NCBI RefSeq assembly: GCF_003018255.1
Contig: NZ_CP027440.1
Reading direction: 5' to 3' (one strand)
Length of the DNA: 64,000 nt
Source: Escherichia coli
GTDB lineage: Bacteria; Pseudomonadota; Gammaproteobacteria; Enterobacterales; Enterobacteriaceae
Shown: piece by piece, positions 45,616 to 54,348 of the stretch
Layout of the letters: each line of letters starts with the position of its first letter
Numbering within the stretch: position 1 is the stretch's first letter
Notes under the pieces: generated by a model
The model's input: only the letters and a program-made list of their open reading frames with translations
Told to the model about the DNA's origin: nothing
Databases searched by the model: none
Made by a program: the position numbers and the translations under genes

Positions 45616-45654
45616 TAATTTGCACATATTGGTTTGTGCGAAAAAGAGTACTTT

Positions 45655-45760
45655 GTTCACGCCGGATGCGGCGTGAACGCCTTACTCGACCTACAAAACT
45701 ATGCAAATTCAATACATTGCAGGAGTCGAATAGGCCTGACAGGCGTAGCACGTCAGACGG
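45655..45760. repeat. RIP / BIME element (second copy in the window)
   Basis: gccggatgcggcgtgaacgccttactcgacctac + aaaactatgcaaattcaatacattgcagg + aataggcctgacaggcgtagcacgtcagacgg; near-identical in its core to the element at about 38508-38612. Confidence 0.7.
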
Positions 45761-45844: not shown

Positions 45845-47345
<1,501 letters not shown>

Positions 47346-47380
47346 TTAGTGGCGATCAGGCTTTTTTTGCATCTGTTTGA

Positions 47381-47460
47381 GAACAAAAAAGAAAACCGCC
47401 GATCCTGTCCACCGCATTACTGCAAGGTAGTGGACAAGACCGGCGGTCTTACGTTTTTTG
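47381..47460 (-). terminator. spy terminator: long compound hairpin with flanking A/T tracts
   Basis: accgccg...gtccac...gtggac...cggcggt nested stems (47394-47447) flanked by aacaaaaaagaaa and cgttttttg. Confidence 0.55.
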
Positions 47461-47469
47461 GCTGAAAGA

Positions 47470-47955
47470 TTATTCAGCAGTTGCAGGCATTTTACCTTTT
47501 GCCGCTGGACGTTCTGTCAGACGCTTCTCAAAATTAGCATTAAATTGCTTTTTCTGTTCCGGCGTCAGGATGTTGTAAATCTTGTTCTGGGTTTCCATGT
47601 GCGCCAGCATGTTAGCTTTGCGCTGTTCTTCCATTTTTGCGATCTGCGCTTCAGCTTTTGCTTTATCGAAGGTATCGCTGGCAATGATGTCATGCATTGC
47701 GCGGCGTTCTTCCAGCGGCGGACGTTTCATCTGGTCACGCTGGCCTTTCATGATTTCGCGGATCTGCTGTTTCTGCGCGTCGGTCAGGTTCAGGTCTTTG
47801 AACATCATGTCCTGATGCGGACCGAACTTGCCTTTGTGGTGCATCATCGGCTTCGCGTCAGCCGGTGCTGAGGTAGTGGTGTCTGCGGCATGGGCCAGGT
47901 TAGCCGCGCCAAGAGCCAGGGTAGAGGCAACAAACAGTGCAGTTAATTTACGCAT
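47470..47955 (-). CDS. spy: Periplasmic ATP-independent chaperone Spy
   Basis: 161-aa ORF with signal peptide; recognised as Spy (CpxP-like). Confidence 0.95.
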   Translation of the reverse strand: MRKLTALFVASTLALGAANLAHAADTTTSAPADAKPMMHHKGKFGPHQDMMFKDLNLTDAQKQQIREIMKGQRDQMKRPPLEERRAMHDIIASDTFDKAKAEAQIAKMEEQRKANMLAHMETQNKIYNILTPEQKKQFNANFEKRLTERPAAKGKMPATAE

Positions 47956-48110
47956 ATTCTATATCCTTCCTTTCAGTTATTTATTACGGCTTTCTTAAGT
48001 AGCGTGCCGTGTTGACGAGATTAACTTTACTGACTTTAGCGTCAATTAATCAGAGCAACGGTAAAACAATGAAAGTGTAAAAAACACTTTTGCGCCAATT
48101 ATGGAGAAAA
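47956..48110 (-). promoter_or_regulatory. spy promoter region (CpxR/BaeR-controlled)
   Basis: Assigned from established knowledge of spy regulation and position; sites not individually mapped. Confidence 0.3.
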
Positions 48111-48256
48111 AAAGAAAATTTGATGGAGAGTAATGAGAGAATATTACAACACGATGATTTTGCAGAGATTATGAAGAACTATACCGGATGACTGGTGATA
48201 AATAAAGCAAATAACCAGGATTAATCTGTATTAATTTATAAGAAAGTAACTTAATA

Positions 48257-48278
48257 CCCGCAGAATGATTTCTGCGGG
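48257..48278 (-). terminator. Hairpin immediately downstream of astE
   Basis: cccgcaga-atgatt-tctgcggg, 8-bp stem, 7 nt after the astE stop. Confidence 0.5.
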
Positions 48279-48284
48279 TAAGTA

Positions 48285-54348
<6,064 letters not shown>

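Follow-up and report, generated by a model that had tools for sequence, protein, structure and literature searches.

The long hairpin downstream of spy as an intrinsic terminator conserved across Enterobacteriaceae

The long hairpin that lies directly past the stop codon of spy in Escherichia coli is almost certainly the intrinsic, Rho-independent terminator of this gene. Its terminator function is already known, and the element has been measured, named (ECK120029600) and reused as a synthetic-biology part. Being an intrinsic terminator of the textbook type, it carries little weight as a discovery. What the comparative data presented here do show is the reason for the strength and robustness of the part, namely a compensated 21-bp helix, an invariant GC base and an AAGA:UUUU closure. 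In the following sections we describe the structure of the hairpin, its conservation, the evidence for termination and the other roles that might be attributed to it.

The spy Locus and the Structure of the Hairpin

The window analysed here is a stretch of 64,000 nucleotides of E. coli DNA, and all positions refer to it unless stated otherwise. The hairpin is located inside the 202-nt spacer between spy and ves, directly past the spy stop codon, and it has to be read on the minus strand, where 19 nt separate the TAA of spy from its first nucleotide. Of 5426 complete E. coli genomes, 5424 contain a match to the 141 nt around it, a single one in each case and always annotated as spy. The features of the region are as follows.

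45845-46732, plus strand: cho, which overlaps the end of ves
46692..47267, minus strand: ves CDS, co-oriented with spy and 124 nt downstream of the hairpin (open reading frame, annotation and translation)
47382..47395, minus strand: U-rich tract UUUUCUUUUUUGUU, following the GC-rich lower stem that ends in GGCGG (sequence)
47392..47412, minus strand: 3′ arm GUGGACAGGAUCGGCGGUUUU, the last four U of which pair with AAGA (fold)
47413..47429, minus strand: apical loop UACCUUGCAGUAAUGCG, 17 nt, with an optional 3-bp mini-stem, variable between genera (fold)
47430..47450, minus strand: 5′ arm AAGACCGCCGGUCUUGUCCAC, read from 47450 to 47430 (fold)
47451..47469, minus strand: 3′ UTR spacer UCUUUCAGCCAAAAAACGU, 19 nt, containing the A6 run
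47454-47459, minus strand: A6 run, preceding the hairpin on the spy-sense strand (sequence)
47470..47955, minus strand: spy CDS, 161 aa, with its stop TAA at 47472-47470 (open reading frame and RefSeq annotation in 5424 E. coli genomes)
48285-49253, minus strand: astE, the minus-strand neighbour of spy

Past the UAA, the spy-sense RNA runs through UCUUUCAGCC-AAAAAA-CGU, the 5′ arm AAGACCGCCGGUCUUGUCCAC, the 17-nt loop and the 3′ arm GUGGACAGGAUCGGCGGUUUU, and continues into CUUUUUUGUU. Within this RNA, minus-strand positions 47392-47450 form a single continuous stem of 21 bp closed by the 17-nt loop, 59 nt in total. When the 106-nt sense RNA is folded with ViennaRNA it reaches -46.1 kcal/mol, compared with -21.5 +/- 3.1 kcal/mol for its shuffles (z = -8.0, with none of 200 shuffles being as stable), while the antisense (plus-strand) RNA reaches -34.7 kcal/mol (z = -4.0 against its own shuffles). 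A sliding 65-nt fold along both strands of the window (25,576 windows; mean -14.0, sd 5.0) places the hairpin first among all 65-nt folds of the 64 kb on either strand, at -40.8, with the runner-up at -35.7. The preliminary description of this DNA, made from the sequence alone, had pointed to an unusually long palindrome at the 3′ end of spy, and such a palindrome is indeed present there as the top fold of the window. On the other hand, the same description had divided it into nested outer and inner stems, a view that does not hold for the RNA. In spy mRNA there is one continuous 21-bp helix, with G-U pairs bridging the mismatches; the plus strand has A.C mismatches in place of the three G-U pairs of the sense RNA, which makes the palindrome look imperfect on that strand, with separate outer and inner stems.

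Two simple searches overlooked this structure. A terminator scanner missed the minus-strand hairpin because its loop limit was 8 nt, and it flagged a small plus-strand hairpin followed by a T run at 47436-47450. Likewise, an exact-seed inverted-repeat search missed the palindrome because the DNA contains no perfect 8-nt seed.

Conservation across Enterobacteriaceae

A scan for the Spy protein with one genome per species yielded 80 loci in Enterobacteriaceae, from which an alignment of 79 distinct sequences was built. Every locus for which downstream sequence exists has a hairpin built in this way after spy. It is retained in spite of insertions of 50-75 nt between the spy stop codon and the hairpin in the Citrobacter freundii group, in C. 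amalonaticus S646 and in Intestinirhabdus. The 21 pairs of the 79 sequences make up 1659 cells, 98.7% of which are paired; in a control in which the partners were slid by 1-3 columns, only 36-54% were paired. Compensatory change is found in 8 of the 21 pairs, which are altered on both sides in 71 cells, and 25 additional pair types occur; none of 500 column shuffles reached any of the observed covariation measures.

The conservation is unevenly distributed along the element. Variation is concentrated in the loop and in the inner half of the stem, where the covariation occurs, and the stem base AAGACCGCCGG...CCGGCGGUUUU varies hardly or not at all among the 79 sequences. This base is as conserved as codon positions 1 and 2 of spy itself, and more so than position 3. 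The AAGA:UUUU closure below it is kept in 77-79 of the 79 sequences, and the sense RNA of these homologues carries on average 7.8 U among the nine nucleotides that follow the GC stem, with a minimum of 5. Conservation across genera is lowest in the spacer that separates the stop codon from the hairpin, with conservation digits of 1-7.

It should be mentioned that the invariance of the lower stem (79/79) exceeds what structure alone requires. An extra constraint on this part of the hairpin beyond termination, such as the binding of a protein, is possible.

Termination at the 3′ End of spy

The hairpin can be equated with a terminator that has been characterized outside its native locus. The K-12 allele, as present in strain DH1, aligns to the window free of gaps and, from TTCAGCC to CTCAA, is letter for letter the 90-nt ECK120029600, which Table 1 of PMC6723963 prints as an E. 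coli K12 terminator, citing Chen et al. 2013. This part belongs to the Chen et al. 2013 set employed in Cello-type circuits, and it represents the same locus with an identical hairpin. Only 3 of the 90 positions differ between ECK120029600 and the window allele, none of them within the stem: one lies in the spacer (G in place of T) and two in the distal U tract, which reads UUUUCUUUUUUGUUC in the window and UUUUCUUUUCUCUUC in the part. The window allele is the minority form, with 492 of the 5424 records reaching 99% identity or more to the window.

The strength of ECK120029600 has been given as 374 by cytometry (PMC5731345, quoting Chen et al. 2013) and, from RNA-seq within a genetic circuit, as 380 +/- 98 (PMC5731345). 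In E. coli DH10B and MG1655 the part abolished reporter output, and in Synechocystis fluorescence was reported as reduced for all the tested terminators collectively (PMC6723963). In a further work, 'spy (strong)' is the strong terminator taken as reference (PMC9257418). The published data on strength and on the 3′ end are those of the K-12 allele; the U tract of the window allele is U-richer. The latter should, if anything, terminate better than the K-12 form.

A useful comparison is provided by the attenuator of thrL (ECK120033737), another Rho-independent terminator, which shares with spy the GC-rich stem followed by a U tract and an A-rich 5′ flank able to pair. The two differ in scale, as the spy hairpin has 21 bp, a 17-nt loop and a folding energy of -42 kcal/mol, compared with -25 for the thrL attenuator (both as tabulated in PMC6723963, Table 1). 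A second difference is the invariance of the spy lower stem across the whole bacterial family. The combination of an exceptionally long and stable hairpin with a good U tract places the spy element among the strongest natural terminators of E. coli.

Term-seq places the 3′ end of the transcript in vivo exactly where a terminator of this type would be expected to leave it. The end was mapped at MG1655 1825060(-), the transcript reading GGCGGUUUUCU-3′; it falls within the U tract, and ves follows 123 nt downstream (PMC7815308). The flank is printed in that work as ...GGACAGGATCGGCGGTTTTCT on one side of the end and TTTCTCTTCT on the other, and the position appears three times across its datasets, with scores of 133,952 and 449,918 shown. 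Through the locus coordinates and the gap-free alignment, the end corresponds to window position 47390, six nt past the last G-C pair. Supplementary file 3 of the same work lists the Rho dependence of the 1825060(-) end as 'No', with a ratio of 0.95, and no other curated Term-seq 3′ end is given on either strand within 18250xx-18251xx (PMC7815308). A single canonical 3′ end at the hairpin, which had been named beforehand as one half of what would tell against the preliminary description, has accordingly been found. That description had also presented the palindrome as standing in the place of a compact terminator. In this respect it has to be corrected, as the hairpin and its U tract are themselves the intrinsic terminator of spy, measured as ECK120029600 and with the Term-seq end in the U tract.

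Proposed Mechanism

In the model that we favor, the nascent RNA behind the polymerase leaving spy folds into the 21-bp hairpin on its GC base, with the last pairs reaching the U-rich tract, and this folding releases the transcript once a few nucleotides of the tract have been made. Termination of spy transcripts at GGCGGUUUUCU is of very high efficiency. Cpx and Bae induce spy very strongly. The strength of the terminator would keep spy transcription out of ves in Escherichia, Citrobacter and Enterobacter, and in Salmonella, Klebsiella and Kluyvera it would avert a collision with the convergent cho or nadE. In addition, the hairpin would be expected to stop 3′ exonucleases and might thereby allow a 'spy 3′' fragment carrying it to outlast the mRNA from which it came.

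The fold of the window allele suggests a part for the A-run as well. Its pairing with the distal U tract can lengthen the helix by seven pairs in this allele. According to this modelled pairing, the A-run would be better explained as the 5′ partner of the U tract than as the tract of a terminator acting in the reverse direction.

A Possible ProQ-Type 3′ Fragment

Beyond termination, the hairpin might mark a stable 3′ fragment of the ProQ type, bound by ProQ and not by Hfq, that would either stabilize spy mRNA or persist as a small RNA. When the mRNA decays, the 21-bp hairpin would survive together with its A-rich 5′ flank paired to the U tail. This would be a role added to termination and not an alternative to it. 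We consider it plausible, with chances that fall slightly short of even.

The existence of such a fragment is suggested by the fact that a 'spy 3′' RNA is already present in the K-12 sRNA catalogue: Table S4 of PMC8550237 lists it under 'K-12 known sRNAs' (from Hor et al. 2020), beside cspE 3′, malM 3′, ompC 3′, rpsI 3′ and yrbL 3′. The catalogued RNA may be derived from the fragment that the hairpin would protect. Among the RNAs listed beside it, cspE 3′ and malM 3′ are ProQ-specific ligands in PMC7367173. It has been established in the latter work that the FinO domain needs the lower stem and at least 4 U, 2 bp of the stem being sufficient, and that ProQ ligands typically have an A-rich motif directly 5′ of the terminator, which pairs with the U tail and is unfavourable to Hfq (PMC7367173). 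The spy hairpin has exactly this closure, AAGA:UUUU, in 77-79 of 79 sequences, and the invariant parts of the element are precisely the lower stem and the tail. With the ProQ-bound ends of cspE-3′ and malM-3′ it shares the terminator hairpin, the run of at least 4 U and the A-rich 5′ motif pairing with the U tail.

However, termination too depends most critically on the lower stem and the U tract, and their invariance cannot discriminate between the two roles. The spy hairpin is, moreover, much longer than the FinO domain of ProQ requires, and spy 3′ is at present only a putative ProQ ligand. The supplement of an EHEC ProQ study has no spy entry, and the EPEC read count for spy3′ is about 1. 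A text search of the literature for spy 3′ RNA matched only papers on plant SPINDLY.

Taking both sides together, we infer from the sequence features that a spy 3′ fragment probably exists and that it would be of the ProQ rather than the Hfq type. The sequence rules accordingly point the follow-up of this fragment to ProQ rather than Hfq datasets. A more far-reaching version, which we regard as a long shot, is that upon Bae/Cpx induction, with massive transcription of spy, 'spy 3′' may accumulate to effective levels and titrate or occupy ProQ in trans by way of its lower stem, its paired A-rich flank and its U tail, thereby acting as a structure-based non-coding output of the stress response. 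In that case the invariance of AAGACCGCCGG/CCGGCGGUUUU would in part reflect recognition by a protein.

Direction of Termination

The presence of an A-run on one side of the palindrome and of a T-run on the other had led to the suggestion, in the preliminary description, that the hairpin could terminate in both orientations. It would then be a bidirectional terminator that also stops plus-strand RNA, arising from read-through of cho or from antisense transcription, by means of the T6 run at 47454-47459. This reading is unlikely, although several observations speak for it. The plus-strand RNA folds better than expected by chance (-34.7 kcal/mol, z = -4.0), the plus strand carries UCUUACGUUUUUU past the stem, and the scanner flags the plus-strand mini-hairpin with its T run at 47436-47450. 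The genomic setting in some genera is suggestive too. While ves is located downstream of spy in the same orientation in most genera, it is missing from Salmonella enterica subsp. arizonae and Klebsiella pneumoniae, in which cho is convergent on spy; the convergent arrangement as a whole comprises Salmonella, Klebsiella, Raoultella, Kluyvera, Buttiauxella and one Enterobacter (nadE). In Salmonella and Klebsiella the stop codon of cho lies a few nucleotides beyond the hairpin, in Salmonella even within its U-rich tail, and in Kluyvera and the one Enterobacter it is nadE that converges on spy. The likeness to bidirectional terminators between convergent genes consists in a palindrome with an A-run and a T-run, as seen in the window, and in convergent neighbours, as seen in Salmonella and Klebsiella.

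Against this reading, the two RNAs are far from equivalent. The sense RNA is the more stable one in 79 of 79 sequences, with a mean of -40.4 versus -32.0 kcal/mol (a difference of 8.4), and the stem is asymmetric with respect to G-U pairs. These occupy 215 of the 1659 cells, with 1-5 per sequence, and they exist only in the sense RNA. The tails differ as well. The U content past the stem is 4.1 of 9 in the antisense RNA versus 7.8 of 9 in the sense RNA, and a distance-weighted T score, computed with an implementation of our own, is 5.0 (window) and 4.6 (K-12) for the sense direction versus 2.2 for the antisense one. The antisense tail reads UCUUGAUUC or UCUUAAAUG and is U-poor even in the species that have a convergent gene. 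As for the T6 run of the window, it is 6 nt away from the stem in the antisense direction, and outside E. coli such a reverse tract is absent. The A-run to which it corresponds is confined to a few lineages: E. coli carries it and so, in part, does the C. freundii group, E. albertii has lost it, and most genera do not have it. The asymmetric stem and the distant or absent reverse tract set the spy element apart from bidirectional terminators between convergent genes.

The context in E. coli does not favour a two-way design either. Here ves is co-oriented with spy, so the spacer that contains the hairpin does not separate convergent units, and a sequence scan recognized no promoter-like site within 46600-48300. 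No plus-strand 3′ end is curated at the hairpin by Term-seq, although plus-strand transcription there may be too low to be detected, and a literature search for bidirectional termination at spy returned nothing. The asymmetry in stability and in the U tract across the 79 sequences leads to the conclusion that selection acted on the spy-sense RNA. From the sequences compared, two-way termination is not supported as a conserved design, and one-way termination of spy appears as the preferred reading. So stable a hairpin may nevertheless display weak activity in the reverse direction.

Other Explanations

A duplex of 21 bp might also serve as a processing site for RNase III that controls the stability of spy mRNA, an explanation that we hold to be very improbable. 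The minimum size of an RNase III substrate is about two helical turns. The spy stem spans about two turns and is uninterrupted in E. coli and most other genera, but Enterobacter species tolerate a 2-nt bulge in it. Furthermore, the single curated Term-seq end is an intact 3′ end past the hairpin, and the transplanted part behaves as a simple terminator.

The 3′ UTR of spy has also been considered as the source of an sRNA similar to CpxQ, which would be released from it, act by Hfq-dependent base pairing and add a non-coding branch to the envelope stress response. The preliminary description had taken cpxP as its precedent, on the premise that spy and cpxP are both induced by envelope stress. 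The RNA that cpxP yields is CpxQ. The likeness extends to the 3′ ends of the two genes, which are conserved among enterobacteria, the 3′ region of spy being well conserved, and 'spy 3′' is catalogued as an sRNA. Nevertheless, an RNA of this kind is extremely unlikely to originate here. CpxQ has conserved single-stranded seeds and binds Hfq, whereas the spy 3′ UTR offers neither a conserved seed nor a signal for Hfq in the tables searched. No conserved single-stranded seed is present in its 19-nt spacer, where conservation is lower than anywhere else in the region, and every conserved nucleotide belongs to the stem and is held in a hairpin of about -40 kcal/mol. In the mapped end, UUUUCU, the UUUU is paired to the conserved AAGA, which is a published negative determinant for Hfq (PMC7367173).

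The Hfq datasets agree with these sequence features. In the feature tables of K-12 Hfq RIL-seq the only entity is astE.spy.IGR, on the 5′ side of spy and with an sRNA probability of 0.0019, so that spy 3′ is absent from them; the Hfq CLASH supplements have no spy entry, and the Hfq RIL-seq and CLASH datasets searched all come from conditions other than strong Cpx/Bae induction or envelope stress. In EPEC Hfq RIL-seq the column for spy 3′ is blank (PMC8550237 Table S4), and a 2022 review of 3′-derived sRNAs does not mention spy. The consultation of Hfq datasets that had been proposed for this region has in this way come out negative for the tables searched. Of the earlier idea that the hairpin protects a stable 3′-UTR fragment, the part concerning the fragment gains support from the entry in the K-12 sRNA catalogue. 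The part concerning a CpxQ-like RNA does not stand, given the lack of an Hfq entry in the tables searched, the lack of a seed and the paired tail.

Finally, searches against Rfam retrieved no family for the hairpin, and permissive E-values gave only chance matches to eukaryotic families. As an extragenic imperfect palindrome at the 3′ end of a gene, the element recalls dispersed extragenic repeats such as REP/BIME, ERIC or similar ones, but there is practically no chance of its being a copy of one of them, and copy number rules this candidate out: across 5424 genomes the hairpin has a median of one location per genome, which is invariably at spy, and it is syntenic with spy across Enterobacteriaceae.

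Allelic state of the terminator flank in the window

The sequence flanking the spy intrinsic terminator (minus strand, hairpin at 47392-47450) represents a minority allele in the window strain. Compared with the K-12 allele of strain DH1, the differences are found at 47382-47391 and at 47452. The former affect the distal U tract, which reads UUUUCUUUUUUGUUC in the window strain versus UUUUCUUUUCUCUUC in K-12, while the latter is a single base change in the spacer that separates the spy stop codon from the hairpin. An identity to the window of at least 99% was observed in 492 of the 5424 records, with 4925 records falling in the 95-99% band. RNA folding pairs the A6 run of the spacer (47454-47459) with the U-richer distal tract carried by the window allele.

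Insertions and structural variants around the hairpin

Several genomes carry additional sequence next to the terminator. In E. coli strain 30EVA2 (L004), an IS1A element lies within the distal U tract (729-1500 of the locus), flanked by a 9-bp target duplication, GAGAAAAGA. Despite this insertion, which displaces ves by ~780 bp, both the hairpin and the proximal UUUUCUUUUCUC are undamaged. On the opposite side of the hairpin, members of the Citrobacter freundii group (L012-L018, L027-L029, and L034-L035) contain an additional insert of ~50 nt between the spy stop codon and the conserved terminator, located ~20-70 nt past the stop. This insert folds as a second hairpin, e.g., ATTCACGCGGTGTGTGCCGATCGCCGCACCGTGTGAA in L012, the arms of which covary between species, and it may be an additional terminator, a small mobile element, or an element of another kind. 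Citrobacter amalonaticus S646 (L020) and Intestinirhabdus alba (L048) also carry 65-75 nt of extra sequence ahead of the conserved hairpin, acquired independently; in the latter, the loop and the inner part of the stem have been replaced as well, with retention of the invariant base.

A more subtle variant is displayed by Enterobacter and Lelliottia (L046, L051, L052, L055-L057, L061, L064, L067-L069, and L073), in which a 2-nt bulge (GA, AA, AG or GC) is located in the 5′ arm, immediately above the invariant CCGCCGG. In the aligned sequences, this bulge is tolerated throughout an entire clade.

Gene order and motifs downstream of spy

The genes that follow the terminator also vary. In Salmonella enterica subsp. 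arizonae (L024, 2061-2969) and Klebsiella pneumoniae (L047, 2071-2934), ves is missing, and cho, which is convergent with spy, has its stop codon a few nucleotides past the hairpin in both loci (inside the U-rich tail in the case of Salmonella). The two convergent genes are thus parted by one hairpin. In Kluyvera (L078) and Enterobacter JUb54 (L049), nadE occupies the place of cho. In the window, ves on the minus strand and cho on the plus strand converge, and their 3′ ends share 41 nt (46692-46732), which leaves no space for a separate cho terminator ahead of antisense entry into ves.

Enterobacter, Kosakonia, and Phytobacter possess a conserved motif, CCCTCTTGCC(A/T)GCCGCC...GCGCGGTATTCTC, upstream of ves and ~10-45 nt downstream of the hairpin (L033, L036, L038, L040-L046, L051-L056, and others). 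By its sequence, it resembles a -35/-10 pair (TTGCCA ... TATTCT). Comparison of the sequence downstream of the spy terminator across loci revealed that this motif is absent from E. coli. In the nadE-cho spacer of the window, an imperfect inverted repeat, GAGTACTTTGTTCACGCCG / CGGCGTGAACGCCTTACTC (45646-45687), is similar to a REP-type extragenic palindrome.

Loci of doubtful origin

Among the surveyed loci, a spy fragment with 78% identity to E. coli Spy (L058) was recovered from a 503-bp contig of the actinobacterial assembly 'Arthrobacter sp. DWC3', and probably represents contamination. In addition, a single 'Citrobacter sp.' MAG yielded both a contig with a 100% E. coli-type spy (L005) and a Citrobacter-type contig (L030); given the presence of both types, this MAG is probably a mixed bin.
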